In this document: positions 5,042 through 54,368 of the stretch, in pieces
Layout of the letters: every line of letters begins with the position of its first letter
Position numbering within the stretch: the stretch's first letter is position 1
From: Candidatus Uhrbacteria bacterium RIFOXYB12_FULL_58_10
Lineage (GTDB): Bacteria; Patescibacteriota; Patescibacteriia; UBA9934; GWF2-40-263
Assembly (NCBI GenBank): GCA_943354165.1
Contig: CALRBH010000005.1
Location: 18 to 64,017 of the forward strand
Length of the DNA stretch: 64,000 bases
Direction: 5' to 3'
The notes under the pieces: generated by a model
What the model was told of the DNA's origin: nothing
Database searches by the model: none
Seen by the model: the letters and a program-made list of their open reading frames with translations, nothing else
Made by a program: the position numbers and the translations under genes

Positions 5042-5044
5042 ACG

Positions 5045-5671
5045 CTACGGCGTTGGGGTTTGAGTATCTACGGTCTGTTGAAAGGCTTCTCGGAACATCG
5101 TTTTCAACTCCTCATCTGTAAGGGTGTCGAGTTTTTCCTTGGGGACTCCGGCCTGCACAAGCATGGCCTTGAGCTGTTCTGGCGGCAGGTCCAGGAAGAT
5201 GTCCTTATACCCTTCCGCACTCTGGTAGTCGGCCGGAGCGTCTGGTTCTGTTGGCGGTGTTGCATTCACGGCGGCAGAAGGGCTTGCGGCCTCTTCCCCG
5301 CGTCCGCAATCTTTCCCTACCGGACAGTTTGGATCATTCCCGGAATACGTTTCCGTGCGGTCATCGAACCCATCTGAGTCAGAGTCGGCGAGGTAGGGGC
5401 TGGTCTTGAAGACGTAGAGCTCGTCGTAATCCACGAGACCGTCTCCGTCCGTGTCACGGGTCTTCATCGCCTCCTTGTCCGCGTCTTCCTTTTGCGAAGG
5501 GGTCAGGAATCGGTCCGCACTGAAGCGGGCGATCTGTGCATCGATCGGCGCACGGATGGAACTTCCAAACGCGTGGAACCCAAGGAACAGTCCCGCAATT
5601 CCCAAAACAATAATCAGAACAAAAGCCGCCTTTTGTTCCCGAGAAAGTTGCGTTCGGGGACGGACATCCAT
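5045..5671 (-). CDS. Membrane-anchored protein with thrombospondin type-3-like calcium-binding repeats (DTDGDGLVDYDE and DSDSDGFDD...NDPNCP)
   Basis: The 208-aa ORF has an N-terminal TM helix (AAFVLIIVLGIAGLFLGF) and two TSP3/OmpA-like Asp-rich motifs. Its stop lies 4 nt upstream of the giant gene start on the same strand. Confidence 0.7.
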   Translation of the reverse strand: MDVRPRTQLSREQKAAFVLIIVLGIAGLFLGFHAFGSSIRAPIDAQIARFSADRFLTPSQKEDADKEAMKTRDTDGDGLVDYDELYVFKTSPYLADSDSDGFDDRTETYSGNDPNCPVGKDCGRGEEAASPSAAVNATPPTEPDAPADYQSAEGYKDIFLDLPPEQLKAMLVQAGVPKEKLDTLTDEELKTMFREAFQQTVDTQTPTP

Positions 5672-5700: not shown

Positions 5701-5780
5701 AGTTAGTAGTAAGTAGATAGTAGTTAGTAGAGCTGACGGTGGAAACCCTACTACCTACTTACTACTATCTACTAACTAAG
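5701..5780. repeat. TAGTAG-family stop-codon-rich hairpin, copy T1 (arms of TTAGTAG/TAGATAG units, 17-nt loop)
   Basis: The left arm agttagtagtaagtagatagtagttagtag pairs with the right arm ctactacctacttactactatctactaactaag. Related copies occur at 8250..8326 and 34899..34997, with a half copy at 46400..46432. Confidence 0.85.
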
Positions 5781-8247: not shown

Positions 8248-8249
8248 GA

Positions 8250-8326
8250 GTTAGTAGTAAGTAGATAGTAGTTAGTAGGGTTGAATGACGGAAAACTACT
8301 ATCTACTTACTACTATCTACTATCTA
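8250..8326. repeat. TAGTAG-family hairpin, copy T2
   Basis: The arm gttagtagtaagtagatagtagttagtag pairs with ctactatctacttactactatctactatcta. It lies between the epimerase start and the prfB stop and provides the prfB TAG stop. Confidence 0.85.
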
Positions 8327-11742: not shown

Positions 11743-11748
11743 AAGATA

Positions 11749-11864
11749 GGGTTGTAAGGGTTGTAATGGACTGTTAGGGGCGAAAGGTCGCTAGGAAAGC
11801 ACGGACGGTCGGGAAAACCCCTTACCACCCTTACTGCCCTTACAGCCCTTACAGCCCTTACCGC
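11749..11864. repeat. GTAAGGG-family hairpin (G family) upstream of groES
   Basis: The forward arm gggttgtaagggttgtaatggactgttagggg is complemented by ccccttaccacccttactgcccttacagcccttacagcccttacc. Confidence 0.8.
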
Positions 11865-11884
11865 CCACGGAATGTCGCTAGATA

Positions 11885-11911
11885 TTAGCAGTCATCAGTT
11901 TAGATTGCTAG
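11885..11911. promoter_or_regulatory. CIRCE-like inverted repeat (putative HrcA operator) about 145 nt upstream of groES
   Basis: TTAGCAGTC-N9-GATTGCTAG has 3 mismatches from the consensus TTAGCACTC-N9-GAGTGCTAA. It overlaps the 3' end of the upstream ligase gene. Confidence 0.4.
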
Positions 11912-13253
11912 CGGCGATATTTTTATCGGTTTTTATTGACTTGTCAAGACAAATCCCACACACAATCGCTGCGAGGGCGAGCCCGCTCCAGAGGCTCCAG
12001 AGGTAATGATCAAACAGGGCAAGGACGATGAGGCAGGCGATCAACGAGGCGGCCATGATGCCGTCGCGCGTAAATAATCGAGGACGGAGCGAGCGCCACA
12101 GTTCCCTTCCCGCTAGGAGAAAGAAGAGGGAGGCGAGAAGACCGCCTTCGGCGAGGAACAGGAGGAAGGCGTTGTGGACTGGCTGGTAGGCGTAGGACGG
12201 GAATCCGGGGCGAAGTGCGGCGAGCTTCGAAGTGAATTGTGAGGTCCCGGTTCCAAGGATCGGACTCGACATGAACACCTCTGGAAATTGGGCGAGGGCG
12301 GCGTAGCGTTCTGCGATCGAACGTTCTTCCAGCCGCGCGGTCGGAATGGCGCGCGTAAGGACTTCCGTTCGGAAGACGATGAGAGTCAGGAGGATGGCGC
12401 AGCCGGCGATGCCGGCGACCGGAAGCGCGCGGCGTGGAAGTTCACGACGGGACCAGAGCAAGAGGATGCCGACGGTTCCGGTTCCAGCCGCCACCGCGAG
12501 CCAGGCGCTGCGGGAAAAGGTGAGGATCAGGGTCGCGGAAAAGATCGCGAGAGCTAAACGCGTCGCGGGCTGATGCCATGAACGGCAACCGCCCCTAACC
12601 CCTCCTTGGCGAAGGAGGGGAATCGCGCTTAGTTCCCAAATGCAAAGCAGGATACCAACTGCCAAATAGCCACCAAACACGTTTGGATGCGGGAATGAAC
12701 CATACGCACGCAGCGTGCGGATGCCTCCGGCGGATTCCACGACGGATGCGCCGAGTTCTGGCGCGTTGTGCGCGGAAAGGCCGAGCCAATGACTGGCGGG
12801 ACTATCGCCCATGAAGGTCTGAATTATCCCGAAGAGACTCACGGGCACGAGTCCGGCAATGAAGGCGTGGCGTGCCATCGAGACATCGGTTCGCTCATCG
12901 GTGATGAGGAGAGCGAGTGCCGCGGCCGCAGCAACATGGAAGAGATGCGAGAGGGCGAGGAGCGGATCTGCGCTCACGAATGAACTCGCGAGCAGGGCAA
13001 GAGCACAGAGTTTTGCCCAGCGGAAAAGTAGTTGGTAGGTGGTAGTTGGTAGTTGGGGTTTTCCGCGTGCAACAAGAAGAGCGAGTGCGAGGAGTTCGGT
13101 TGCGTACAACAGGGTTTTTCCGTACTCCCATCCCCCGCCATCAAGCGTTCTCTCCATCACGATCCACACCATCTGCCACGGCAACAGGAAAAGCAGCGCG
13201 TACAGGCCGTTGGTTACGAGGCGATCTTTGTTCATACGCCGTGAATTCGACAT
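11895..13253 (-). CDS. O-antigen ligase / O-antigen polymerase family membrane protein (Wzy_C domain)
   Basis: It is a multi-TM protein with the motif TFSRSAWLAVAAG characteristic of the WaaL/Wzy_C family. It contains an in-frame P-family hairpin at 12599..12620 encoding PLLRQGG. Confidence 0.7.
   Translation of the reverse strand: MSNSRRMNKDRLVTNGLYALLFLLPWQMVWIVMERTLDGGGWEYGKTLLYATELLALALLVARGKPQLPTTTYQLLFRWAKLCALALLASSFVSADPLLALSHLFHVAAAAALALLITDERTDVSMARHAFIAGLVPVSLFGIIQTFMGDSPASHWLGLSAHNAPELGASVVESAGGIRTLRAYGSFPHPNVFGGYLAVGILLCIWELSAIPLLRQGGVRGGCRSWHQPATRLALAIFSATLILTFSRSAWLAVAAGTGTVGILLLWSRRELPRRALPVAGIAGCAILLTLIVFRTEVLTRAIPTARLEERSIAERYAALAQFPEVFMSSPILGTGTSQFTSKLAALRPGFPSYAYQPVHNAFLLFLAEGGLLASLFFLLAGRELWRSLRPRLFTRDGIMAASLIACLIVLALFDHYLWSLWSGLALAAIVCGICLDKSIKTDKNIAASNLN
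12599..12620. repeat. P-family hairpin (cccctccttggcgaaggagggg) in-frame within the O-antigen ligase CDS
   Basis: A perfect 9-bp stem with a 4-nt loop. It is the same core as at 7438 and 25231. Confidence 0.75.
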
Positions 13254-14131
13254 TCCTCAAGCCATTGATCCCTATATTCCTCTCGACGATCCTGGTCGTG
13301 GAACTTTAGGTACTCCTCATTCGCGATCACGCGGCTGTCCTTGTTGAGGAGGTCGCGTATGGGTTGTGGGAAGCGACGTTCTTGGAGCTTGCGTGCCCAG
13401 GTTTCAGGAATGAATTTGGGAAACTTCCAGACGGGAACCCCTGCCGAAACAGTCGGATGCAGTGCCCGTCCCGCTGCCTGCGGAATGAAGCGATTCGTCC
13501 ACACGTTAAGCTTATGGAACCTCTCAAATACGCCACCCGCGTCATATACAGGGACAAGTGAACGCGCCCATACCGCCAGATACGGATCACCGCCTGGAAT
13601 CGAAAGACGTTCCAGGTTGAGCGCGTCCTCGCTTGCGAAAAAACTGAAACAGAACGGGTCGCGCGTCTTCACTCCTGGCCGCTCGCGCGTCAAAATGAAC
13701 GGCGCAACGCAGAGCAGACGTGACGACCACAGCTGACCCGGCTTCGTGATGACAAAAAGGTCGATGTCGGAACTTTCGCGCGTGTGCGAAAACGCGAGCG
13801 TGTTCCCCGCCGCGATGCCAATGACTCCGGGAACGCGTTTGAGATATTGAACGGCCCTGTGAACGCGCGCGAACTTTCGAATTGCGTCGTGCGTCCGCTC
13901 ATCACGTACCTGAGCGAGCCCCGAGGTTCCCTTTCGTCCGATGTAGGCGCCTTCCTGCACGCATTCTGCCCGTAAGACCATCGACGTCTCCAGGGTGCGA
14001 TCGATTTCTCCACGCGACGTCTCCTCCCCGTTCTGAAACATCCATGTATAGAGCTCATCGCGCGTCAGCGGATAGTCGAAGAGCGCGTACCACGAGACCG
14101 TCCGGAAGATGGCGCTCTCCGTGCGGTTCAT
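13232..14131 (-). CDS. Hypothetical protein with a nucleotidyltransferase-fold-like motif (GIAAGNTLAFSHTRESSDIDLFVI)
   Basis: The 299-aa ORF has a G[SN]-x(9-13)-D-x-D pattern resembling Pol-beta-like nucleotidyltransferases. It overlaps the upstream gene by 22 nt. Confidence 0.4.
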   Translation of the reverse strand: MNRTESAIFRTVSWYALFDYPLTRDELYTWMFQNGEETSRGEIDRTLETSMVLRAECVQEGAYIGRKGTSGLAQVRDERTHDAIRKFARVHRAVQYLKRVPGVIGIAAGNTLAFSHTRESSDIDLFVITKPGQLWSSRLLCVAPFILTRERPGVKTRDPFCFSFFASEDALNLERLSIPGGDPYLAVWARSLVPVYDAGGVFERFHKLNVWTNRFIPQAAGRALHPTVSAGVPVWKFPKFIPETWARKLQERRFPQPIRDLLNKDSRVIANEEYLKFHDQDRREEYRDQWLEECRIHGV

Positions 14132-14884: not shown

Positions 14885-16174
14885 TTACGTGGTCTCAGGG
14901 GTAGAAGGTGTTGAATCGCTCGGCTGCGCCTCGCTTGTAGAAGTTGTAGAAAGTGGAGTCGTTTCTACATTTTCTACACCTTCTACACTTTCTACAATCT
15001 GGTCCGGCTTCCCTTCCTCAGCAATATTGATCTTCCAACCAGAGAGCTTGGCAGCGAGGCGGACGTTTTGACCTCCGCGTCCAATGGCGAGCGAGAGCTG
15101 ATCGGCATTCACCTTCACGGAAGCGGAACGATCGGATTCTTGCACACTCACGGCCAGGACTTTTGCTGGAGCAAGAGCATTGGCAATAAACTTCTCTGGA
15201 ATGTCGTTCCATTCGATGATATCCACCTTTTCTCCACCCAACTCTGCAATGATGGTCTGAATGCGGGTTCCGCGCTGACCAATACAAGCACCGATTGGAT
15301 CAATGGAATCATCCTTCGCAGACACGGACACCTTGGAGCGTGATCCTGCTTCGCGAGCGAGAGCTTTGATCTCCACGGTTCCTTCGGACACTTCTGGAAT
15401 TTCCATTTCAAAGAGCTTGCGGACTACTTCCTCAGAGGCGCGGGAGAGGAGAATTTCCGGACCACGCGTGGTGAGGGCAACCTGGCGGACGTACACCTTG
15501 ATGCGGTCGCCGGTGGCGTAACGCTCCGTTGGAATCTGGTCCTCCGGGCGAATGATGCCGGTGGTGCGGCCAATGTCGACAAGAACCACGCGACCCTCGC
15601 GGCGCTGCACAGTGCCGTTGAGCATCTTGCCCTCATGTTCCTTGAACTCGTTGAACACGATTTCGCGTTCGGCCTCGCGCAGCTTCTGCATGATGACCTG
15701 TTTGGCGGTCATTGCCGCCATGCGTCCGAATTCGCCTTCCATCGGCATTTCTGTGCGGAGCACGTCGCCGATGCTTGCAGACATCTTAAGCACGCTCGCC
15801 GCAGAAAGCATGAGCTCCGTCTTTGGATTGAAGGATGGAAGATCGTCTTCGTCGATCGTTACGGACGTAACGCTTTCCCCGCGATCACGGGCCTGTTTGA
15901 TTTCGTTTGCGAGCTTCTCCACGCGTGCTTTGCGCTCCAGGTCCGCCGCCTCAAGCGCTTCCGGAGTAATGTCGGCAACGACCATCTTTACATCAAACAC
16001 ACGGGTGGCGCCCGTTTCCGGATCGAACTCCACTTCAATGTTCATGTTCTTATCGCCGAAGTCCTTACGGTAGGCGGCGGCGAGGGCGGCTTCGATGGCG
16101 GAAAGGACTGCTTCATATGCGAGCCCTTTTTCCTCGCAAATCTGACGAATAGCTTGTTCAATGGGTGATGACAT
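14885..16174 (-). CDS. nusA: Transcription termination/antitermination factor NusA, with a low-complexity Val/Glu/Thr/Ser-rich C-terminal tail
   Basis: The N-terminal domain, S1 domain and two KH domains (GACIGQRGTRIQ, IGRGGQNVRLAAKLSGW) are recognisable. The C-terminal tail is encoded by TTCTACA/TGTAGAA repeats at 14935..14997. Confidence 0.92.
   Translation of the reverse strand: MSSPIEQAIRQICEEKGLAYEAVLSAIEAALAAAYRKDFGDKNMNIEVEFDPETGATRVFDVKMVVADITPEALEAADLERKARVEKLANEIKQARDRGESVTSVTIDEDDLPSFNPKTELMLSAASVLKMSASIGDVLRTEMPMEGEFGRMAAMTAKQVIMQKLREAEREIVFNEFKEHEGKMLNGTVQRREGRVVLVDIGRTTGIIRPEDQIPTERYATGDRIKVYVRQVALTTRGPEILLSRASEEVVRKLFEMEIPEVSEGTVEIKALAREAGSRSKVSVSAKDDSIDPIGACIGQRGTRIQTIIAELGGEKVDIIEWNDIPEKFIANALAPAKVLAVSVQESDRSASVKVNADQLSLAIGRGGQNVRLAAKLSGWKINIAEEGKPDQIVESVEGVENVETTPLSTTSTSEAQPSDSTPSTPETT
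14935..14997. repeat. TTCTACA heptamer tandem and inverted repeats inside the nusA 3' coding end
   Basis: TGTAGAA x2 is followed by TTCTACA x4. The segment is hairpin-capable and encodes VESVEGVENVETT. Confidence 0.65.
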
Positions 16175-17298: not shown

Positions 17299-17375
17299 TG
17301 GTGGACGCTGGGGGATTCGAACCCTCGACCTACTCGGTGTAAACGAGCCGCTCTAACCAGCTGAGCTAAGCGTCC
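17299..17375 (-). tRNA. tRNA-Val (anticodon TAC), CCA encoded
   Basis: The reverse complement GGACGCTTAGCTCAGCTGGTTAGAGCGGCTCGTTTACACCGAGTAGGTCGAGGGTTCGAATCCCCCAGCGTCCACCA forms a cloverleaf with a 7-bp acceptor stem, the anticodon loop TTTACAC and a TTCGAAT T-loop. There is one A:C mismatch in the T-stem. Confidence 0.9.
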
Positions 17376-17630
17376 ATAATTTTCAACTAACCAGGTCCGA
17401 CGCCCTGATGGGGTACGGACCCCCGACCGCATCAGCGCGTCGGGGCTGAGCTAAGCGTCCATAATTTTCAACTAACCAGGTCCGACGCCCTGATGGGGTA
17501 CGGACCCCCGACCGCATCAGCGCGTCGGGGCTGAGCTAAGCGTCCATAATTTTCAACTAACCAGGTCCGACGCCCTGATGGGGTACGGACCCCCGACCGC
17601 ATCAGCGCGTCGGGGCTGAGCTAAGCGTCC
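17376..17630. repeat. Three perfect tandem 85-bp units immediately 5' of tRNA-Val(TAC). In tRNA orientation each unit is the tRNA 5' 15 nt (GGACGCTTAGCTCAG), then a 51-nt GC-rich hairpin insert, then TGGTTAG and 11 nt.
   Basis: The period is 85 (units start at 17376, 17461 and 17546), and every unit ends with gctgagctaagcgtcc, identical to tRNA positions 1-16. The insert has inverted repeats (CCGACGC/GCGTCGG and CTGATG/CATCAG). A related single element lies 5' of tRNA-Ile at 34528..34620. Confidence 0.9.
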
Positions 17631-17640
17631 ATAATTGCTA

Positions 17641-20814: not shown

Positions 20815-20935
20815 TAAACGACAAACAACAAATCCCAAACGACAAAGAAAGAGGGAAAAGAAGAAACAGCTAAACCTTTTACCCTTTTTTCGTTTTCCAT
20901 ATTTCTTTGTCGTTTGTCGTTTTTCGTTTCATCGT
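20815..20935. repeat. CGACAAA-family long hairpin (arms of about 35 nt)
   Basis: aaacgacaaacaacaaatcccaaacgacaaagaaagag pairs with tttctttgtcgtttgtcgtttttcgtttc. It lies between the histidine kinase start and the upstream gene stop. Confidence 0.75.
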
Positions 20936-23468: not shown

Positions 23469-25178
23469 TTACATTTCCATTGCTGGCTTGATGCCGAGGA
23501 GCGCAAGACCGTTTTCGAGCACCTGCTGCACGGCCTTCACCGTCGCGAGGCGCGCCATGCGCTCTTCCCCTTCACTCGAGGCGACGGGAACGGCTTCGTA
23601 GTAGGAACTGAAGGTCTGGGCGAGGTCGAAGAGGTACTGGGCGATGAGACTTGGCTTCAACTCGGCTCCCGCGGCCGCTACGGCTTCAGGATAAGAGGCC
23701 AGCGCAAGCAGCAACCGATGCTCCAGTGGATGTGTGAACCTCAATCCCTTACCACCTTTACCGCCCTTACCACCTTTACCCGCCTTCTTGAGCACACTCG
23801 TTGCGCGGGCGAACATATAGAGGAGGTATGGGCCGGAGAAACCTTCGAACGACATGGCTTCGGCGCGATCAAAGATGATTTTCTTGTCCGGATCCTGCTT
23901 GAGCATCGCGAAGCGGATGGCGGCGAAGGCTACCGACTGCGCCGCGGCGTCGAGTTGCTTCTGGCTCCAGTCCTCATGGCGCTTCTTGGATTCCGCATGC
24001 GCCGCCGCGATCAGCTCATCGCGGAACTCTTCATACCGAATCGCGTTTCCTTTCCGGGAGGACATTGATCCTTCCTTAAGAGTGACGAATTCGTAGGAAA
24101 CGTGTTCCATCTCCTTCTCGAACCCCATCCGCTTGAGGGTCGCAAACAGCTGGCGCATGGCGAGCGTCTGGCGGCCGTCGATCACGAACAGACTGCGCGG
24201 GGCGTGATAGTCATCATCCTTGCGCATCGCGAGGGCGAGGTCCTTGGCGTTGTACAGAAGCGTCCCATCGGACTTCACAAGCAGGTTGGCTCCGAAGCCT
24301 TCATCCTCCAAGTCGACGATCCAAGCTCCTTCACTCATTTTTACGATCCCTTTCTTTTTCAAATCCTCGATGATCTCCTTGGTTTGAGGAATGAGATCGC
24401 TCTCATAATAGGTTTTCTGGATGGTGAGGCCGAGTTCCTTCTGGATGGCCTTAAAGTTCTTGAGCGACCAAGTGCGGGTTTGCTTCCAGAGGCGCACAGC
24501 GGGACCCTTGAGGTCCTCGAGCTCGTGGTGGATGGCGGAAATAGCCTGCTTCACTACTGGATCTGCAGACGCAGCGACCGCTTCCACGTACATGCGCTCA
24601 AGAAACGCGATATCATCCTCGTCCGCGCGGCGCTGGTCCTTGCTGCGCTGGATGGCCCAAAGACAGGCGGCCACGTTCGCGCCCAAATCGTTCACATAGG
24701 ACACGGGAATCACCTCATGACCGAGCGCACGCAGAAGATCAACGACCGCCTGGCCCAAAAAGAAATTTCGAAGGTGACCGACGTGCAATCCTTTGTGCGT
24801 ATTCGGGTTCGCGAACTCGACGAGGACCCGTTTGCCCTGGCCCGAATCGGACGTGCCGAACTTTTTGCCATCGGCGGCAATCTCTCCGAGGATCGCGGTG
24901 CCGAAAGAAGTGTCGTCGAACGTAAAGTTAATGTACGGACCCTTGGCCTCCGCCTTCTTAATGAATCCGTCTGGCGAAATCTTCGGCGCAAGCTCGGAAG
25001 CGATCTCCATGGGGTTCCGGCCCATTCCTTTTGCGAGGACGAAACAGGGAAACGCAATGTCGCCCATTGCTGGGTCTGGTGGGCTCGTGAGGTCTGCCAT
25101 CGTCGGCGCGTATTCCTTGCCGATCGCGGACTTCAACGCGAGCAGGACCTGCTTTTTGGCATCGAGCATGATGGACAT
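23469..25178 (-). CDS. argS: Arginine--tRNA ligase
   Basis: The 569-aa protein has a HIGH-region variant (PNTHKGLHVGHLRN), a KMSK-like motif and a DALR anticodon-binding C-terminus. It contains a GKGGKGGKGGKG insertion encoded by the G-family repeat. Confidence 0.95.
   Translation of the reverse strand: MSIMLDAKKQVLLALKSAIGKEYAPTMADLTSPPDPAMGDIAFPCFVLAKGMGRNPMEIASELAPKISPDGFIKKAEAKGPYINFTFDDTSFGTAILGEIAADGKKFGTSDSGQGKRVLVEFANPNTHKGLHVGHLRNFFLGQAVVDLLRALGHEVIPVSYVNDLGANVAACLWAIQRSKDQRRADEDDIAFLERMYVEAVAASADPVVKQAISAIHHELEDLKGPAVRLWKQTRTWSLKNFKAIQKELGLTIQKTYYESDLIPQTKEIIEDLKKKGIVKMSEGAWIVDLEDEGFGANLLVKSDGTLLYNAKDLALAMRKDDDYHAPRSLFVIDGRQTLAMRQLFATLKRMGFEKEMEHVSYEFVTLKEGSMSSRKGNAIRYEEFRDELIAAAHAESKKRHEDWSQKQLDAAAQSVAFAAIRFAMLKQDPDKKIIFDRAEAMSFEGFSGPYLLYMFARATSVLKKAGKGGKGGKGGKGLRFTHPLEHRLLLALASYPEAVAAAGAELKPSLIAQYLFDLAQTFSSYYEAVPVASSEGEERMARLATVKAVQQVLENGLALLGIKPAMEM
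23746..23784. repeat. GTAAGGG-family repeat embedded in-frame in argS, encoding (GKG)n
   Basis: cccttaccacctttaccgcccttaccacctttacccgcc is the reverse complement of GGTAAGGG/GGTAAAGG units and encodes KKAGKGGKGGKGGKG. Confidence 0.75.
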
Positions 25179-25187
25179 AGGGGTCGG

Positions 25188-25252
25188 AGGGCTGTAAGGG
25201 CGGTAAGGGTCGTAAGGGGCTGAATACGTTCCTCCCCTTCGCCAAGGGGAGG
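25188..25252. repeat. Composite intergenic spacer between argS and tyrS: GTAAGGG units followed by a P-family hairpin (cctcccc ttcgccaa ggggagg)
   Basis: gggctgtaagggcggtaagggtcgtaagggg is followed by cctccccttcgccaaggggagg. Confidence 0.75.
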
Positions 25253-25277
25253 TTGGGAGGGGTTGCCGTCCATGGCA

Positions 25278-26489
25278 TCAGCCTTGTATGACACGAACGA
25301 AGTGCCGCTTTCCTTTCTGGATGACGTTTCCATTTTCCGTCGGGGTGATCGACAAGTCGTAGCCCGAAACGACAACCTCATCGACTTTCACTCCCCCGCC
25401 ATCGATCAAACGGCGAGCTTCGCCGTTGCTTGTGGCGAGGCCGGTGCGGACGAGGGCGTCGATGATGCCGATGGAGCCCAGGATTTTGACCGTTGGGATT
25501 TCGGTTGGCATCGCATGGTCCTGGAAGAGCGCATTGAACGCTTTCTTGGCGGCCTTTGCCTTGGCGCGGCTGTAAAAGAAGGTGACGACTTCCTCGGCGA
25601 GGTGGGCCTTCACATCGCGTGGGTTGGCGCCGGTCGCAAGTTCGTCTTTGATGGCCGCGAGTTCGATCGCTGGGATCTCCGTGAGCAATTCGAAGCCTGG
25701 TTCGATCATGCCATCAGTCCAGCTCATCACCTTGCCGAACATTTCGTCTGGCGAATCCGCAAGCGTGATCATGTTCCCTTCGCTCTTCCCCATCTTCTTG
25801 CCGGTATTGTCGACGAGAAGCTTCGTGGTGAGGACGAATTTCTCCTTGTGCTTGATTTCCTTCATGAGCGTGCGGCCGGCAAGCATGTTGAACGTCTGAT
25901 CGTTCCCGCCGATTTCCCCATCGACATCCATAGCGACAGAATCGTAGCCCTGCATGAGGGGATAGAGGAATTCGTGGAGGTGGACTGGCTTTCCTTCTGC
26001 GACGCGCTTCTCAAACATGTCGCGTTCGAGCATTTGCTGGACGGTGTAATGCGAAGCGAGTTCGACGACGTTGCTGAACGACATCTTGCCGAGCCACTTA
26101 GAGTTGTACTTAAGCTCGGCCTTGTTCTCGCCGGAGAATTTAAGGATCTTCGATGCCTGCTTCTTGTAGTTCTTGGCATTCTCGAGAACCTGTTCGCGAG
26201 TGAGACGGACGCGAGTTGCCGACTTGTCGGTAGGATCGCCAATCATGGCGGTGAAATCGCCGATGAGGAGGATGATCTTGTGGCCGAGGTCCTGGAGCTC
26301 GCGCAGTTTCATGAGGACGATGGCGTTCCCCAAGTGGAGCGATGGGCCGGTTGGGTCGATGCCAAGGTAGATGGTGAGTTGTTTCCCTTCTACGAGGCGG
26401 GCGCGAACGAAATCGCGCGATGGGTACACGTTTTCCACTCCTCGAGTGAGGAGGGCGTCGATTTTGTGGGCGTCAGTAATAACGTTCAT
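25278..26489 (-). CDS. tyrS: Tyrosine--tRNA ligase
   Basis: It has HLGN (a HIGH variant), KMGKS and a C-terminal S4-like domain. The start is at MNVITDAHK, the internal Met of the longer ORF. Confidence 0.93.
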   Translation of the reverse strand: MNVITDAHKIDALLTRGVENVYPSRDFVRARLVEGKQLTIYLGIDPTGPSLHLGNAIVLMKLRELQDLGHKIILLIGDFTAMIGDPTDKSATRVRLTREQVLENAKNYKKQASKILKFSGENKAELKYNSKWLGKMSFSNVVELASHYTVQQMLERDMFEKRVAEGKPVHLHEFLYPLMQGYDSVAMDVDGEIGGNDQTFNMLAGRTLMKEIKHKEKFVLTTKLLVDNTGKKMGKSEGNMITLADSPDEMFGKVMSWTDGMIEPGFELLTEIPAIELAAIKDELATGANPRDVKAHLAEEVVTFFYSRAKAKAAKKAFNALFQDHAMPTEIPTVKILGSIGIIDALVRTGLATSNGEARRLIDGGGVKVDEVVVSGYDLSITPTENGNVIQKGKRHFVRVIQG

Positions 26490-26519
26490 ATCCCGCGCAT
26501 CGTAGCGGAAATGACTGAT

Positions 26520-26557
26520 TTTCGCAAAAATCAAACGACCCCGTTGTGGGGTCGTTT
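26520..26557 (-). terminator. Rho-independent terminator downstream of valS
   Basis: The hairpin aaacgacccc-gttgt-ggggtcgttt is followed on the minus strand by gatttttgcg. Confidence 0.65.
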
Positions 26558-26568
26558 ATTGCAGGTTA

Positions 26569-29229
26569 TTACAGGGCTTTGAGCTGAACCTCTAAGGCCG
26601 ACAGCTTCAACTGCGCCTCTGCGAGCTTCGCCCGCATCTCGGCGACCACCTTCTCCGGCGCCTTACCAACGAATTCCTTGTTAGTAAGCTTGGCTTCCGT
26701 ACCATCAATGTACTTACGAGCCGAAGCGATCTCGCCTTCGATGCGCGTGCGTTCCTTCGCCATGTCTACGAGACCGGCGAGGGGGATATGTATCGTGAAT
26801 CCGGTACCGACGGCGGACATGCTTCCCTCTGGCTTAGCGGCATCAGCCGCAATCGTCAGTTCGCCCACACGCGCCAATCGACGAATCAGCGATGCGTTCG
26901 CTTCGAGAAGTTCCGCCTGCGCACCCGCCGAAATCACCGCGACAATTTCCTTGGCTGGTTCCACCTTGTAGTCGGCACGCATCGCACGAATCGACGTAAT
27001 GACGCTTCGGACGGTTTCGAACTGCGCTTCGGCCTCTTCGTCGCGCGCGCCCGAACTTGTCGGATAAGGTTCGATGATGAGCATGCCCTTCTCACCCATT
27101 TCCTTCCAGATCGTCTCCGTCACAAACGGCATGAACGGATGCCAGAGGCGAATGATTCCATTGAGAATGAACCGAAGGTTCGCGTCGGTCGATACGAGAA
27201 GCGTCGCGTCCGTACGCTGGATCTTTGCGATCTCGAGATACCAGTCGGCGAACTCACTCCAGGTGAATTCACGCAAAGTTTCTCCGGCGGCAGAGTAATC
27301 CTTGTTCTCAAGGAATCGAACGGTTTTGCTAACAGTTTCCTCGAATCGGGACATGATCCACCGATCAGCCAAGGTCGTTCCTGTGGCCTCCGGCCTAACG
27401 CCTAACGCCTGTGCCCCAACTGTCGTCAGCACGAACCGGGAAATGTTCCAAAGCTTGTTCGTAAAGTTCCGCAAGCCGGCAACCTTCTCCTCAGAGAGCT
27501 TCACGTCGTTCCCCGCCGTCGAACCGATCACGAGCGAGAGACGCGTGGCGTCCGCTCCGTACTTCGCGATCATGTCGAGCGGGTTGATGATGTTGCCGAG
27601 GGACTTCGACATCTTCCTTCCCTGCTCATCACGCACGAGGCCGTGCAAGTAAACTTCCTTGAACGGAACTTCACCGAGAAGATAAGTCGTCATGCTCACC
27701 ATGCGCACGACCCAGAAGGTCAGAATGTCGTAACCTGTTTCGAGAACGCTCGTCGGATGGAATGTCTTGAGATCGTTCGTCTTCTCAGGCCAACCCAATG
27801 TCGAAAACGTCCAAAGTCCGGAGCTGAACCAGGTATCGAGGGTGTCTTCATCCTGAACCCACCCATCTCCCTCAGGAGCCGATGTGCCGACAAAAGTTTC
27901 CTCCCCGACCTCCCGGACCTCCCCAACCTTCCCAACCTTTCGGTACCAGACAGGAACGCGATGTCCGAACCAAATCTGGCGGCTGATACACCAGTCGCGG
28001 AGATTATCGACCCATTGGAAGTAGGCCTTCTCGAATCGCTCTGGGGTGATCTTCACCTTGCCGGAACGAACGGCGTCCTGGGTCAAAGTTTTCAACGTCG
28101 CCTTCTTGCCATCGCGATCAAATTCCTTGGAAGCACTGATAAACCACTGCAATTTAGGCAAAGGTTCGACGGTTCCGCCCGAACGTTCGGCGGTCGCCAA
28201 GTTCTGAATCGTCTTTTCCTCTGCTTCGATGAGACCTTGCTCCTTCAACCATGAAGCGACGATTTCGCGGGCTTCTTTCGTTGTCTTGCCAGCGACGAGT
28301 GGTCCGGCCACCTCGTTCATCCGTCCGTCTTCACCAATCACCTGCTTCAAGGTGAGTCCGTGACGATCTGCGATATCGGCGTCGATCAAACTATGTGCAG
28401 GCGTAACACCAAGCGCACCGGTTCCGAACTCTGGATCGACGGAATCGTCGGCGACGACCTTAATGGAAATCGTCGTGCCAGCGAATGGGATGTTTCCGAA
28501 TGTCATCCCGACGAACTGCTTGTAACGAGCGTCCTTTGGGTTCACGGCCACGGCCATGTCCCCTACTTTGGTCTCCGGGCGCGTCGTGGAAATGGCGATC
28601 GGGAAGTCCTTGCTGTACTTGAACGTATAAAGCGTCGCCTCCACTTCCTTATAGATAATTTCGATGTCTGAAATGGTCGTCTGTCCAAGCGGATCCCAGT
28701 TAATGACGCGATAGCCGCGATAAATAAGGCCGTCGTCGTACATCTTTTTGAAGGCGACATTCACGGTATGATTGCGCTCTGCGTCGAGCGTGTAGGCCTC
28801 GCGACTCCAATCGAGCGAGCTCCCCATCTTCTTGCACTGGTTCACGATAGTATCGTGGCTCTCCTGGGCGAACTTGTTCACCTCATCCAAAAACTTCTCT
28901 CGGCCAAGCGTGTGGCGAGGAGATTTCATGCCGCCCTCGATCAAAAGCTTCTCGACTTTCGACTGAGTTGCAATCGCGGCGTGGTCTGTACCAGGAATCC
29001 AGAGCGCCTTCTTGCCGCGCATGCGCTCAAAACGGACCATGAGGTCCTGGATGGCGAGCATAGTGGCGTGGCCCATGTGGAGCGTGCCGGTCACGTTCGG
29101 TGGAGGCAGAACCATGGAGAACGGTTCTTTGCGTTCGCCTGGAAGATTGTCGGGGTTGAAGAATCCACTCTGTTCCCAGTCCTTATAGACCTGGTCTTCG
29201 TGGGCTCCTGGCTCGTAGGCTTTTGGCAT
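26569..29229 (-). CDS. valS: Valine--tRNA ligase
   Basis: MPKAYEPGAHE.. aligns with ValRS N-termini, and a HIGH-like motif (PPNVTGTLHMGHA), KMSKS and a C-terminal coiled coil are present. A W-family repeat is inserted in-frame at 27901..27943. The ORF extends upstream to 29388 through another W-family copy. Confidence 0.95.
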   Translation of the reverse strand: MPKAYEPGAHEDQVYKDWEQSGFFNPDNLPGERKEPFSMVLPPPNVTGTLHMGHATMLAIQDLMVRFERMRGKKALWIPGTDHAAIATQSKVEKLLIEGGMKSPRHTLGREKFLDEVNKFAQESHDTIVNQCKKMGSSLDWSREAYTLDAERNHTVNVAFKKMYDDGLIYRGYRVINWDPLGQTTISDIEIIYKEVEATLYTFKYSKDFPIAISTTRPETKVGDMAVAVNPKDARYKQFVGMTFGNIPFAGTTISIKVVADDSVDPEFGTGALGVTPAHSLIDADIADRHGLTLKQVIGEDGRMNEVAGPLVAGKTTKEAREIVASWLKEQGLIEAEEKTIQNLATAERSGGTVEPLPKLQWFISASKEFDRDGKKATLKTLTQDAVRSGKVKITPERFEKAYFQWVDNLRDWCISRQIWFGHRVPVWYRKVGKVGEVREVGEETFVGTSAPEGDGWVQDEDTLDTWFSSGLWTFSTLGWPEKTNDLKTFHPTSVLETGYDILTFWVVRMVSMTTYLLGEVPFKEVYLHGLVRDEQGRKMSKSLGNIINPLDMIAKYGADATRLSLVIGSTAGNDVKLSEEKVAGLRNFTNKLWNISRFVLTTVGAQALGVRPEATGTTLADRWIMSRFEETVSKTVRFLENKDYSAAGETLREFTWSEFADWYLEIAKIQRTDATLLVSTDANLRFILNGIIRLWHPFMPFVTETIWKEMGEKGMLIIEPYPTSSGARDEEAEAQFETVRSVITSIRAMRADYKVEPAKEIVAVISAGAQAELLEANASLIRRLARVGELTIAADAAKPEGSMSAVGTGFTIHIPLAGLVDMAKERTRIEGEIASARKYIDGTEAKLTNKEFVGKAPEKVVAEMRAKLAEAQLKLSALEVQLKAL
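27901..27943. repeat. W-family repeat (GGTTGGGGAAGTTTGGGAGGTTCGGAAGG type) inserted in-frame in valS, encoding KVGKVGEVREVGEE
   Basis: The plus strand ctccccgacctcccggacctccccaaccttcccaacctttcgg is the reverse complement of the family consensus. It lies in the conserved ..WYRK^..TFVG.. region. Confidence 0.8.
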
Positions 29230-29244
29230 GTCGGGCATAAGCGA

Positions 29245-29284
29245 GAGGTTTGGAAGGTTGGGGAGGTTCGGAAGGTTTGGAAGG
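29245..29284. repeat. W-family repeat just upstream of the valS start. If translated in the valS frame it would encode LPNLPNLPNL.
   Basis: gaggtttggaaggttggggaggttcggaaggtttggaagg. Confidence 0.8.
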
Positions 29285-29336
29285 ATGAGTTGAATCGGGT
29301 TTACTGTAGGGGAAATTGGGCTGGGGGGCAATATTG

Positions 29337-29361
29337 ATGTCATCACAAATTGTGATGACAT
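29337..29361. promoter_or_regulatory. Perfect 12-1-12 palindrome atgtcatcacaa-a-ttgtgatgacat (possible operator), with a second related palindrome at 29654..29678 (ctaaggtcacaa-t-ttgtgaccttag)
   Basis: Both palindromes share the core TCACAA-N-TTGTGA. One lies just downstream of the ORF6N gene stop and the other inside its coding region. Confidence 0.4.
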
Positions 29362-29365
29362 GGCG

Positions 29366-29905
29366 TCAACTTTTGAATCCGATTTCATCTTGTGATGAGT
29401 CTGGTTCGGAGAGAAGATGGCGCAGAGCCTCGAATACCGTGACGAACTGCTCGTCGTATGTCTTTTCCATCGCTTCTACTTTTTCAAGTAAGTCCTTATA
29501 ACCCTGGATCATTTCTCGCATTCTCGTAAATACACGGATGATCTGAATATTTACAAGAATCGCCCGCTCACTCTTTAGAACACTTGAAAGCATGGCAACG
29601 CCTTGCTCAGTAAAAGCCATTGGTCTCCAACGAAAATGTGTGGAGTCTTCGCCTAAGGTCACAATTTGTGACCTTAGATTTCTTGCTTCATACACAGTTA
29701 AAATGAACATAAAATCCTCCGGAAACCGTTCACTGTTTCGTTTCACTGCTTGCTTCAATACCTTCGTGGGCACGCCGTACAGTTCGGCTAAATCCGCATC
29801 CAACATCACCTTCCTCCCCCGAATCACGAAAATCCGTTGCTCAATCCTCTCCGACGGTACGAGCGACATATCCATACACGTAAAAAATAAAAACGCCTCC
29901 GGCAC
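29366..29905 (-). CDS. ORF6N (KilA-N-related) domain protein, typical of phage/mobile-element antirepressor-like genes. The region is locally AT-rich.
   Basis: RIFVIRGRKVMLDADLAELYGVPTKVLKQAVKRNSERFPEDFMFILT matches the ORF6N domain signature. The segment visibly has lower GC than its flanks. Confidence 0.7.
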   Translation of the reverse strand: MPEAFLFFTCMDMSLVPSERIEQRIFVIRGRKVMLDADLAELYGVPTKVLKQAVKRNSERFPEDFMFILTVYEARNLRSQIVTLGEDSTHFRWRPMAFTEQGVAMLSSVLKSERAILVNIQIIRVFTRMREMIQGYKDLLEKVEAMEKTYDEQFVTVFEALRHLLSEPDSSQDEIGFKS

Positions 29906-34889: not shown

Positions 34890-34898
34890 AGAACAAGA

Positions 34899-34997
34899 GT
34901 TAGTAGATAGTAGTAAGTAGTTAGTAGATAGTAGTAAGTAGTTAGTAGATTTTCCGTCGCACATCCCTACTAACTACTATCTACTAACTACTAACTC
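34899..34997. repeat. TAGTAG-family hairpin, copy T3 (left arm internally duplicated)
   Basis: gttagtagatagtagtaagtagttagtagatagtagtaagtagttagtagat, a loop, then tactaactactatctactaactactaactca. Confidence 0.85.
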
Positions 34998-49407: not shown

Positions 49408-49925
49408 GCGGTCCTGGGACGGCCGGACGGCTACGGTGGATCGCAAGATTCGCTGAGGAAAGTCCGAACACCCGTGGCATCGCAAGGTGCTACGCCAAGG
49501 AACGTCGCTAACGGCGACCGGGTATACCTGTGGGATGTAGAGGCGTTGGAGCAATTCACGCTTTTGGATCTCATAATAAGCCTAGGGAAAGTCTCCCCTG
49601 AAGATAGGACGGGGAGTGCGAAACCAGATCGAAAGGTCTGGGGACGTAGCCACAGAGACAATACTGACGGCCTTCGCGCAAGCCAGGCAGCTGCCTGGCA
49701 AGCATGGCCGCTCAAGGTGAAAAGTGAGGTGATGTGTCGCAAGACGCTGCACCTCTCCCTGCATGGTGACATGCAGGCGATGCAAACCCGTTCCGGTGCA
49801 AGAGCAAGTTTGGTAGCTCGCACGAGCCATGCAGCAATGTATGGACCAGAGAGATGGCCGTCTCCTGCGCACCTAACCCGTGCGGAGAAGACAAAATTCG
49901 GCTTACAGGCCGCTCCCAGGACAGC
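49408..49925 (+). ncRNA. rnpB: RNase P RNA (bacterial type A)
   Basis: The P4 strands GAGGAAAGTCCG and ACAAAATTCGGCTTACAGG are conserved, as are ACAGAGACAATAC..GGCC and AAGGTGAAAAGTG, which correspond to E. coli M1 CAACAGAGAGCAAACC and GGTAAGGGTGAAAGGGTG. P1 pairs GTCCTGGGA with TCCCAGGAC. A terminator follows. Confidence 0.85.
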
Positions 49926-49957
49926 TAAAACCCTCGCTTACCGCGGGGGTTTTTGCT
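49926..49957 (+). terminator. Rho-independent terminator after rnpB
   Basis: aaaaccctcgc-ttac-cgcgggggttttt. Confidence 0.65.
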
Positions 49958-49971
49958 ACCATACGCCTACT

Positions 49972-51393
49972 ATGAAGCGCTCAGAGCTATTCTTCACGAT
50001 CGTTCTCCTCCCCGTGGATCTGCTGGCCCTCATCGCGGCGTCTATTGCGGCGTTCCATTTGCGTCTGCACCCGTATTTCGTGAACCTCCGACCCGTCACC
50101 TTCGACCTCACCATCGAGAACTATCTTCCGGTAGCGACGCTCGTCTCCTTTGGGTGGATGGTCATCTTTGCCGTGAGCGGATTGTACGGCATGCGCCGGC
50201 GCGCGATGGCGACAGAGCTTACGCGCGTATTCCTTGCCTGCTCTGCCGGCATGGCCGGAGTGTTCTCCATTCTCTTCTTCTCCCGCACGCTTTTTGAATC
50301 GCGTTTCATCGCTGTCGCCGCATGGATCCTGGCAATCATTTTCGTCTGCGCGGCACGCATCGCGGTTCGTCTTGTCCAGCGCAGTCTCCTTTACGCCGGC
50401 ATCGGCGAACATAAGGTCGTCCTCATCGGCAACAGCCATTCCGGAGACGAGCTCGAGAAATTCTTCAAAGCCCGTCATCGGTTCGGCTTCCATGTCGCCG
50501 GTCATTTTCCTAAGTTCGATGAAGCCGCCCGCGAACACATCCATGCCCTCAAATCCAAGGACCAGGTCGATGAAATTTTCCTCGTCGATCCGGAAATGAG
50601 CCGAAAGGACGCCTTTGAGATCCTTTCGTTTACCGAAAACGAACACCTGGGCTTCCGCTACGTCGCCGATCTCTTTGCCGCGGCAGCCGGACGATCGATT
50701 ATCCATACGTTCACGGGGATTCCCGTCATCGAAGTACAGAAGACTCCCCTCGATGGTTGGGGCGCCATCTACAAGCGCATTTTCGACATCGTCGGATCGC
50801 TCGTTCTCATCATTGCAACCTTACCGATTCAAATCGTGGTCGCCATCGCCCTTTTCATCGAGAGTCCTGGGCGCGTATTCTTCTCCCGCCTTCCGAATGG
50901 CAAGAAAGTTCTGCGCATGGGCGGTTCAGGCCGGCCGTTCCACTACTTCAAGTTCCGTTCGATGATCAAGGACGCCCACCTGTTCCGATTCGATCCTGAC
51001 TTCGTAAAAAAGTACGGCAACCTTCGGGAAGGATCCCCCATGTTCAAACTCAAGGACGATCCGCGCGTCACCCGCGTAGGAAAGATCCTGCGCAAATACT
51101 CGCTCGATGAGCTGCCGGAGTTTTACCTCGTCCTGCTAGGCCGCATGTCGCTGGTCGGTCCACGCCCACATCTCCCGGAGGAGGTCGCTAACTACAAGCC
51201 GCACCAGCGCAAAGTGCTTACGATTAAGCCTGGAATCACCGGAATGGCCCAGATTAGCGGCCGTGCCGACCTTGACTTTGACGAAGAAGTCCGCCTAGAT
51301 GTGAGCTATATAGAGCGCTGGAGCCCATGGCTCGACCTCTACATCTTGCTCAAGACCCCCTTTGCTGTTTTGTTTAGAGGAGGGGCGTATTAA
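49972..51393 (+). CDS. Polyprenyl-phosphate sugar phosphotransferase (WbaP/CpsE-like bacterial sugar transferase)
   Basis: It has N-terminal TM helices and the C-terminal Bac_transf domain (..LDELPEFYLVLLGRMSLVGPRP..). The start is at MKRSELFF; the ORF 49474.. overlaps rnpB. Confidence 0.88.
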   Translation: MKRSELFFTIVLLPVDLLALIAASIAAFHLRLHPYFVNLRPVTFDLTIENYLPVATLVSFGWMVIFAVSGLYGMRRRAMATELTRVFLACSAGMAGVFSILFFSRTLFESRFIAVAAWILAIIFVCAARIAVRLVQRSLLYAGIGEHKVVLIGNSHSGDELEKFFKARHRFGFHVAGHFPKFDEAAREHIHALKSKDQVDEIFLVDPEMSRKDAFEILSFTENEHLGFRYVADLFAAAAGRSIIHTFTGIPVIEVQKTPLDGWGAIYKRIFDIVGSLVLIIATLPIQIVVAIALFIESPGRVFFSRLPNGKKVLRMGGSGRPFHYFKFRSMIKDAHLFRFDPDFVKKYGNLREGSPMFKLKDDPRVTRVGKILRKYSLDELPEFYLVLLGRMSLVGPRPHLPEEVANYKPHQRKVLTIKPGITGMAQISGRADLDFDEEVRLDVSYIERWSPWLDLYILLKTPFAVLFRGGAY

Positions 51394-51395
51394 AA

Positions 51396-51487
51396 GGGCT
51401 GTAAGGATGGTAAGGGCGGTAATGGACTGTAAGGGCGAAAGATCGAACCAACCCCTTACCATCCTTACAACCCTTACAGCCCTCACC
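51396..51487. repeat. GTAAGGG-family hairpin (G family) between wbaP and the GT4 gene
   Basis: gggctgtaaggatggtaagggcggtaatggactgtaagggcg pairs with ccccttaccatccttacaacccttacagccctcacc. Confidence 0.8.
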
Positions 51488-51501
51488 ACCCCACGATCCT
51501 C

Positions 51502-54297: not shown

Positions 54298-54346
54298 AAC
54301 CCCAACCTCCCCAACCTTCCGAACTTCCCAAACCTCCCCAACCCCT
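54298..54346. repeat. W-family repeat (reverse orientation), intergenic upstream of the GT4 gene
   Basis: caaccccaacctccccaaccttccgaacttcccaaacctccccaacccc. Confidence 0.8.
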
Positions 54347-54368
54347 CGCGATTTGCTATACTGCCCGT

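Follow-up and report, generated by a model that had tools for sequence, protein, structure and literature searches.

The question raised by the valS locus of Candidatus Uhrbacteria bacterium RIFOXYB12_FULL_58_10 is how the same short repeat came to lie both inside the gene of valine--tRNA ligase (ValRS) and directly before its start codon, and what this means for the enzyme. The locus belongs to a 64,000-nt stretch of contig CALRBH010000005.1, a metagenome scaffold of 66 kb; this stretch is referred to here as the window, and all census figures for the repeat concern its 64 kb. The valS gene occupies positions 26569-29238 on the minus strand, with an annotated start at ATG 29238 (MPDMPKAYEP) and a conserved Met at 29229. 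Its product is 100% identical to the database protein P0001 (889 aa), which is annotated from ATG 29238. The repeat, named W, is probably a genome-specific dispersed repeat of short tandem units, and its copy within valS a tolerated passenger in a permissive loop of ValRS.

The W consensus comprises five degenerate 9-nt units, 45 nt in total (CGAAAGGTT GGGGAAGTT TGGGAGGTT CGGAAGGTT TGGGAGGA). The degenerate pattern AGGTTNGGRAGGTTNGGR, allowed up to two mismatches, was matched 18 times at 6 loci, against 0.09 matches expected from 100 dinucleotide-preserving shuffles of the window, none of which reached 18. The nhmmer profile built from W copies returned exactly six significant matches in the window (E from 6e-8 to 2e-12) and nothing further, and Tandem Repeats Finder (TRF) reported 9-nt-period arrays at 27900-27938 and 29246-29284. 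The dispersed family proposed in the initial annotation is thereby confirmed with six copies, and the pattern, TRF and nhmmer agree on the places of the two copies linked to valS. The first of these lies inside valS (27898-27942, minus strand, E = 5e-10; pattern matches and TRF period 9) and the second in the spacer before it (29242-29286, plus strand, E = 4.6e-11). The third, GT1 internal, is found inside the GT4 glycosyltransferase gene 52591-53727 (53306-53350, plus strand, E = 1.8e-12), and the fourth, GT2 upstream, precedes the glycosyltransferase gene 54369-55478 (54304-54348, minus strand, E = 3.8e-10). The last two are the G-rich left arm (56118-56163, plus strand, E = 3.2e-10) and the C-rich right arm (56164-56211, minus strand, E = 5.9e-8) of a pair inside the gene of a DUF4012 protein. 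Four of the six arms thus fall within coding sequence.

All six copies begin with the same 5' end, CGA(R)(R)GGTT, which is followed by four or five 9-nt units. Adjacent units mismatch at 1-3 of 9 positions, and the variable bases occur in an order common to the copies; the single CGG unit has an equal relative position in five copies and is shifted back by one unit in the sixth, the right DUF4012 arm. The fixed 5' end and the common order of variable bases mark W as a distinct element, about 45 nt long with a period of 9 nt inside it, and set it apart from free-running simple repeats. The common unit order also points to copying from one template rather than to slippage locus by locus. The DUF4012 pair (56118-56211), being adjacent and inverted, forms a hairpin with an RNA fold of -40.2 kcal/mol (z = -4.9) and a DNA fold of -21.5 kcal/mol (z = -3.6). 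Single arms are unstructured and non-palindromic (DNA fold -1.8 or 0 kcal/mol, z near 0). Comparison of the six flanks revealed no target-site duplications or flanking direct repeats at the W copies, no terminal inverted repeats around single arms, and no extended homology beyond the CGA start; a weak flank similarity (AAGGATGAGT..GGGTTAC) is shared by the valS-upstream and glycosyltransferase copies. In a metagenome scan, ARGTTNGGRARGTTNGGRARGTT matched more than 120 contigs, which range in GC from 20% to 73% and of which many carry perfect or hairpin 9-mer arrays; arrays of such type are widespread. Neither the unit order specific to W nor its CGA start occurred in any of these contigs, and the scan gave neither evidence of homology nor further copies from the organism.

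The internal copy in valS reads CGAAAGGTTGGGAAGGTTGGGGAGGTCCGGGAGGTCGGGGAGGAA in mRNA sense and encodes residues R430-E444, the frame across it being R-KVGKVGEVREV-GEE; the peptide predicted from the sequence contains KVGKVGEVREVGEE. The net insertion amounts to 33 nt, or 11 aa in frame (27907-27939, minus strand; K431-V441, KVGKVGEVREV), between WYR and GEETFVG. At this junction all 60 of the 60 closest ValRS proteins read GHR(V/I)P(V/A)WY-(R/K)-G(E/D)E(V/I/T)-(F/V)VG without the 11-aa insert, and the DNA of eleven relatives (L001-L011) reads CGN GGN GAR GAR, likewise without it. Judged by these alignments, the valS copy is a true in-frame insertion absent from all relatives compared, and the inserted peptide, which the initial annotation had regarded as an addition to this ValRS, was found in no ortholog. 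Translational bypassing or splicing of the insert was also considered and dropped, as an insert in frame and without stops needs neither.

The insertion has left the recognizable architecture of the enzyme in place. The close relatives of the window ValRS all belong to Candidatus Uhrbacteria or other Patescibacteria, and its homologues carry the Pfam domains PF00133, PF08264 and PF10458. It aligns end to end with ValRS of T. thermophilus (1GAX, E = 3.9e-194), its class Ia motifs are intact, and the invariant columns flanking the insert are kept (W428, Y429, D460-S469). An AlphaFold2 model based on a 62-sequence alignment (mean pLDDT 88.6, pTM 0.80) contains a sole segment with pLDDT below 50, residues 434-442, which corresponds to the insert and lies between strands 427-432 and 442-447. 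In the model the insert is a floppy loop, predicted to be disordered, at the tip of a surface beta-hairpin. The initial annotation located the copy in frame between WYR and TFVG and inside the catalytic domain. Translation bears this out with respect to the sequence, since the copy lies in the Pfam tRNA-synt_1 region; structurally, however, the mapping on the model places it at the tip of a peripheral beta-hairpin. The insert site aligns with the CxxC...CxxC stretch of Thermus ValRS 1GAX and, by homology with IleRS, probably belongs to the variable CP3 subdomain, whose topology and zinc binding differ between species (PMC7191050). Given the predicted disorder of the insert and its position away from all conserved motifs, the ValRS is expected to work normally.

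The second copy was said to abut the ValRS start, and it does so closely, ending 3 nt before ATG 29238 and 12 nt before Met 29229 of MPKAYEP. Read in the sense of valS mRNA, this copy shows its C-rich complement ...CCTTCCAAACCTCTCG, after which come CTT and the ATG. It occupies part of the 127 nt that separate valS from the ORF6N gene (stop at 29366). The further suggestion that an upstream start would add the peptide to the protein holds in part: the long ORF 26569-29388, read from ATG 29388, does give ...ILPNLPNLPNLPNLSLMPDMPKAYEP, but the homologue N-termini make the use of this ATG very unlikely. The resulting 59-residue extension with LPNLPNLPNLPN has a counterpart in no homologue and would overlap the upstream ORF6N gene. 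Among 120 ValRS homologues whose N-termini were compared, 112 have the KAYE/D motif; about 100 of these 112 have no more than 9 residues before it, and P0022 begins with the identical MPDMPKAYEP. Given the short N-termini of homologues and the overlap of the extension with the ORF6N gene, valS probably does not yield the PNL peptide. The upstream copy is intergenic and untranslated, and constitutes leader or promoter-proximal DNA. The sigma-70 promoter scan upstream of valS found no promoter; a weak TTGCCC-17-TACAGT noticed by eye upstream of the array (8/12 positions) was not relied on. The missing Shine-Dalgarno sequence before valS is uninformative, because most genes of the window also lack one and start in a YYTATG context, that of valS being CTTATG. 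Between the ORF6N stop (gene 29366-29905, minus strand) and the upstream W copy, a perfect 25-nt palindrome, ATGTCATCACAAATTGTGATGACAT, occupies 29338-29362 and could be a terminator or an operator.

The copies outside valS show that W is translated in three frames: in valS, in the glycosyltransferase and in the DUF4012 protein. The (K/E)VG(E/K)V-type reading is used in valS and in the left arm of the DUF4012 gene, the right arm of which reads NLPNLPNLPNIPNLS. The DUF4012 gene (55483-58188, Pfam DUF4012) carries the W hairpin in frame as EEVGEVWDVREVEEEINLPNLPNLPNIPNLS, so that both orientations occur in one protein, ...EEVGEVWDVREVEEE-I-NLPNLPNLPNIPNLS..., and the claim that the same DNA gives (K/E)VG(E/K)V or LPN peptides depending on its orientation has proved correct. 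The hairpin falls in a hypervariable linker preceding a TM helix, and the N-terminal linker of DUF4012 relatives is too divergent for choosing between insertion and replacement. The third frame, GWGSLGGSEGLGG, is used in the glycosyltransferase 52591-53727, where it is read as KGWGSLGGSEGLGGR. According to an alignment of 44 homologues, the GT1 copy replaced about 15 ancestral residues with net length unchanged, and its first unit, GGTTGGGG, overlaps conserved Gly-Trp codons. The GT2-upstream copy presents its C-rich strand in mRNA sense, followed by TATACT and then by ATG.

Taken as a genome-specific dispersed repeat, a complete W element would be an inverted doublet that folds as a hairpin, with single arms occurring too. 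Its copies would be laid down both in spacers and within genes, and a copy landing in a tolerant part of a gene would add or replace a short flexible peptide. W contains no stop codon in any of the six frames, and this, together with the 9-nt period, would be why such a copy does no more than that; the peptide in valS appears to be a neutral passenger. We infer that W spread by templated copying from a nearby copy, because ancestral flanks match W, the GT1 copy replaced existing sequence, the arms are paired, and no transposase domain was found in the scanned ORFs. The 12 nt that flank the valS insertion (CGA ... GGGGAGGAA) are the ancestral R and G-E-E codons, and these flanking bases, CGA ... 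GGG GAG GAA, correspond to the two ends of W, its first 3 and its last 9 nt. Isolated arms have inverted partners of the same family 1.0-1.4 kb away, as seen in three pairs: valS upstream with valS internal, GT1 internal with GT2 upstream, and the upstream and internal arrays of argS, which belong to another family. The Pfam hits of 50 window ORFs include no transposase. Microhomology may have primed the formation of new copies, either through template switching or through a gene-conversion-like patch.

The valS case exemplifies a phenomenon that extends across the genome and the clade. The window contains about two dozen 7- and 9-nt arrays of several families. The closest parallel concerns argS (23469-25178), the next-but-one gene from valS, where TRF, translation and alignment identified a GTAAGGGNN array at 23746-23786 (minus strand) encoding GKGGKGGKGGKG. 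The alignment of 45 ArgRS homologues places GKGGKGGKGGKG in a variable loop of the anticodon-binding domain; some relatives have other tandem peptides in this loop, AHEAHGAHGE and VRKEKQVRKE. Between tyrS and argS, an inverted array of the GTAAGGGNN family (25186-25222, plus strand) precedes the ATG of argS (25178) by about 10 nt, and the layout of leader arm and internal arm is therefore the same as in valS, with another 9-mer family. The gene between valS and argS is tyrS (25277-26488, minus strand), masked in a naive ORF list by a longer spurious ORF (25263-26582, plus strand); the order valS-tyrS-argS-AdoMet decarboxylase is kept in the closest genome, L201. A further 9-mer array, (GTAGAAANN)n in mRNA sense, stands in frame at 14962-14996 in the C-terminal tail of NusA and encodes VESVEGVENVET. 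The idea of a G-quadruplex fits, by eye, the GTAAGGGNN family and not the 7-mer families. In the O-antigen-ligase-like membrane protein gene 11895-13253, the 7-mer GTAGTTG is repeated four times (13020-13066) in frame, encodes PQLPTTTYQL and is flanked by the inverted repeat GCGGAAAA...TTTTCCGC.

Relatives carry unrelated families of their own. The valS of P0002 has the array peptide GAEAAEGAEG. In L201, (GGGGCCGAA)3 stands in frame at another valS site (12194-12223), and a 7-mer hairpin, GGGGTAG/CTACCCC, lies in the tyrS-argS spacer before argS (13958-14014). In L004 a GGCGCATAA hairpin occurs right before valS, together with an array of the same family within valS (2897-2960, about 4986-5020, and 7073). 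Because relatives carry their own unrelated families, the repeat families appear to turn over fast between genomes, and the tolerated positions recur in the sequences compared. Across the candidate phyla radiation (CPR), the WY(R/K) site of ValRS is itself a recurrent target. Many of the closest ValRS homologues have unrelated inserts of 3-27 residues in the WY(R/K) segment, or its zinc-knuckle version, and in 23 of 79 CPR valS loci the segment is longer than the standard 20-22 residues. In most of these 23 the extra residues directly follow WY(R/K), and four are Cys-rich zinc-knuckle versions; the inserts are unalike among lineages. On this sequence comparison, the WY(R/K) site is an indel hot spot across CPR bacteria. 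Arrays of 7 or 8 nt stand at the exact hairpin tip in L023, L024, L025, L037, L071, L075 and L080, among them (ACAGGGA)n in L023 and L025, (AAAACAAG)4 in L024, (ACAAGTA)4 in L037, a perfect (AAGTCAA)4 in L071 and (AATTACG)n in L075.

Many arrays of the window are inverted doublets that nearly fill short spacers, with fold z-scores of -6 to -8.5. Seven are close doublets (5704-5778, 8249-8326, 11748-11866, 20816-20929, 34898-34996, 51394-51491 and 56118-56211), and all seven consist of a purine-rich arm, a loop and a pyrimidine-rich arm and stop 2-35 nt short of the start codon that follows. The AGTTAGT-type 7-mer family, which has stops in all six frames, is intergenic only; the loops of three of its hairpins share a GACGG(A/T)..AAA motif. 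In five of five cases, an isolated arm beside a start codon has its pyrimidine-rich strand in mRNA sense, and the purine-to-pyrimidine polarity is also met in relatives and in most metagenome hairpins. The same polarity characterizes the (AGGTTNGGG)n hairpin doublets of high-GC soil contigs (L084, L097, L125, L136, L155, L166, L169, L179 and L185; GC 0.67-0.73), so nonamer hairpins are not confined to GC contents like those of CPR bacteria.

Several points weigh against regarding W as a passenger spread by local copying. The nearest ValRS is just 70% identical, so the insertion is deduced from distant relatives and not from a near-identical strain with an empty site. The census covers 64 kb of the genome, and a transposase or master copy may lie elsewhere. 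The clustering of arms relative to random placement (p about 0.003-0.03) was obtained with thresholds picked post hoc. Moreover, the uniform polarity of the arms may hint at constraint or function beyond a neutral model, and the layout of leader arm plus internal arm in valS, argS and the valS of L004 could reflect function.

Among known systems, W works most like the Rickettsia palindromic elements (RPEs) and also resembles REPINs; judged by analogy, it fails defining features of both. The RPEs are likewise dispersed within a genome; they occur in non-coding DNA and also in housekeeping genes unrelated to each other, where they keep the frame and add a peptide at places that the protein fold allows (PMC10969869). 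W shares with them its multiple copies, the preserved frame and the absence from orthologues in the case of valS, and the permissive position. The RPEs, however, are palindromes of about 100-150 bp with a conserved encoded peptide in an alphaproteobacterial host, whereas W consists of 45-nt arms of 9-nt units, is read in at least three frames, is present in valS as a single non-palindromic arm, and resides in a CPR bacterium; homology between W and RPE sequences is not expected. In cyanobacteria, the short tandemly repeated repetitive (STRR) heptamers and the small dispersed repeats, reportedly described by Mazel in 1990 and Elhai in 2008, form families peculiar to each genome, mostly intergenic and with no known function. 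They resemble W and its sister arrays in having short tandem units of 7-9 nt at many loci. The arrays described here differ in the phylum of the host, in their degenerate units in fixed order, in often forming hairpin doublets and in their repeated presence in essential genes. Simple-sequence contingency loci, which bring about phase variation through slippage, also have short tandem units at gene starts and within genes, but these are perfect 1-7-nt repeats that shift the frame or the promoter spacing, whereas W is imperfect, has a 9-nt period that cannot shift the frame, and is hosted by essential housekeeping genes. The literature search for tandem repeats in CPR bacteria or Patescibacteria did not find a description of such elements.

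The alternative that survives best, though it is rather unlikely, is that W is a non-autonomous element of REPIN or MITE type, moved in trans by a RAYT or an IS200/IS605-type Y1 enzyme encoded elsewhere. The hairpin doublet would then be the mobile unit, and the single arms, both valS copies included, would be decayed or half elements. The stable hairpin formed by the inverted doublet and the fixed 5' terminus CGA of all six copies are consistent with this, and enzymes of IS200/IS605 type insert beside a short specific target without duplication (PMC3116915). REP sequences and REPINs also form several short families per genome, with hairpin doublets nearly filling short spacers and with singlets (PMC3116915), and the several distinct families of the window recall the REPIN groups. 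REPs, however, are individually palindromic, extragenic and linked to a RAYT gene. The single W arms lack a palindromic REP core, many copies are intragenic, no RAYT was found in the 64 kb, and the Pfam hits of window ORFs include no transposase or Y1 domain. The terminal inverted repeats and target-site duplications expected of a MITE are likewise absent from the single arms. Furthermore, the GT1 copy replaces sequence and does not add to it, and beside both valS copies the trace of a partner arm is absent.

An improbable explanation is in-place slippage, in which the array would have grown from the purine-rich ancestral codons CGA GGG GAG GAA and its likeness to the other W loci would be convergent. 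Slippage is favored by the (near-)perfect local arrays at the WY(R/K) site of other CPR valS genes, such as those of L071 and L024, by the lack of a second copy of these units within the 7-8 kb fetched per valS locus, and by the resemblance of the ancestral GGGGAGGAA to the W unit. The tandem repeats of Borgs (aaTRs) also arise independently at each locus (PMC9879509). Like W, they are frequent in ORFs, preserve the frame, encode disordered peptides and turn over fast between relatives, but they are perfect and locus-unique and arise in place, whereas W is degenerate and has the same 45 nt at six loci (PMC9879509). Against slippage stand the 1-3 differences per 9 positions between adjacent W units, the CGA(R)(R)GGTT start of all six copies, and the variant order (G/T, G/T, single CGG, G/T) that the valS copy has in common with five others, for which the chance is roughly estimated at ~1e-5. 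Slippage fits some other lineages, e.g., L071, and not the shared unit order of W.

The recurrence of a leader arm and an internal arm suggests a functional pair, in which the C-rich leader arm would base-pair with the G-rich arm 1.3 kb inside the mRNA and control the initiation of valS translation or the stability of its mRNA, with argS behaving likewise. The RNA duplexes are predicted to be very stable, with -69.8 kcal/mol in the case of valS and -48.2 kcal/mol in that of argS. Just 3 nt separate the leader arm from the start codon, and the layout recurs in two near-adjacent aminoacyl-tRNA synthetase genes with two families, as well as in the valS of L004 with a third. We nevertheless consider such control very improbable. 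The third W pair (GT1 internal, GT2 upstream) has the opposite topology and spans two genes, internal arms differ in position from genome to genome, and such a pair is missing from most relatives. Translating ribosomes would melt a duplex in the coding region, the leader arm may not be transcribed with valS, and these genomes hold arrays at such density that local copying could produce pairs of this kind.

Slightly less probable still is a selected function of the peptide in ValRS, for example as a charged flexible arm contacting tRNA or a partner protein. Many lineages have elaborated the site, Thermus and some CPR bacteria by a zinc knuckle and others by varied inserts, and selection has been argued for the in-frame repeats of Borgs (PMC9879509). 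The same DNA element, however, is also non-coding or read in other frames elsewhere, the insert is predicted to be disordered, inserts at the site are unalike across lineages, and the peptide occurs in no ortholog. Finally, chance similarity or an assembly artefact, conceivable because the contig is metagenome-assembled and assemblers can mishandle repeats, is excluded for practical purposes by the match statistics (18 pattern matches vs 0.09 expected) and by the preserved frame of conserved genes in all intragenic copies, and the 45-nt copies are also shorter than a sequencing read and embedded in unique sequence.

Apart from these repeat families, the window contains a unit of 85 bp repeated 3.3 times at 100% identity (17360-17636), which starts inside the 5' end of tRNA-Val(TAC) (17299-17375, minus strand). 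About the first 16 nt of tRNA-Val and the 69 nt upstream of it are triplicated, either by a very recent duplication or as an assembly artefact. The bacterial RNase P RNA at 49415-49922 (plus strand; Rfam RF00010, 130.9 bits) measures 508 nt compared with 367 nt of the model, which indicates large insertions. The long ORF 49474-51393 starts within the span of this RNA, and its sugar-transferase domain begins only at residue 434. The ORFs at 71-5063 have no Pfam hits.

Summarizing, W is probably a tolerated passenger, and a broader reading can be advanced more tentatively, although it is rather doubtful. CPR bacteria, Uhrbacteria included, would possess a new class of fast-evolving, genome-specific repeats with units of 7-9 nt, which would spread locally by templated inverted copying and not by a transposase, nearly fill spacers with hairpins of uniform polarity at start codons and systematically reshape the surface loops of essential proteins (ValRS, ArgRS, NusA, glycosyltransferases), with the WY(R/K) tip of ValRS as a recurrent landing site. 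In a stronger version of it, the leader and internal arms of valS and argS may pair over a long range as a regulatory RNA duplex. Given the tiny, streamlined genomes of CPR bacteria, an abundance of short repeat families that enter even essential genes such as valS, argS and nusA is unexpected. The tip of the ValRS hairpin after the WY motif is a recurrent site of lineage-specific elaboration. If the phenomenon holds more widely, such repeats would provide a natural map of insertion-tolerant loops in core enzymes, a source of new disordered peptides in CPR proteomes, as well as of artefacts in their annotation and alignment, and a tractable case for the spread of small repeats without an obvious transposase.

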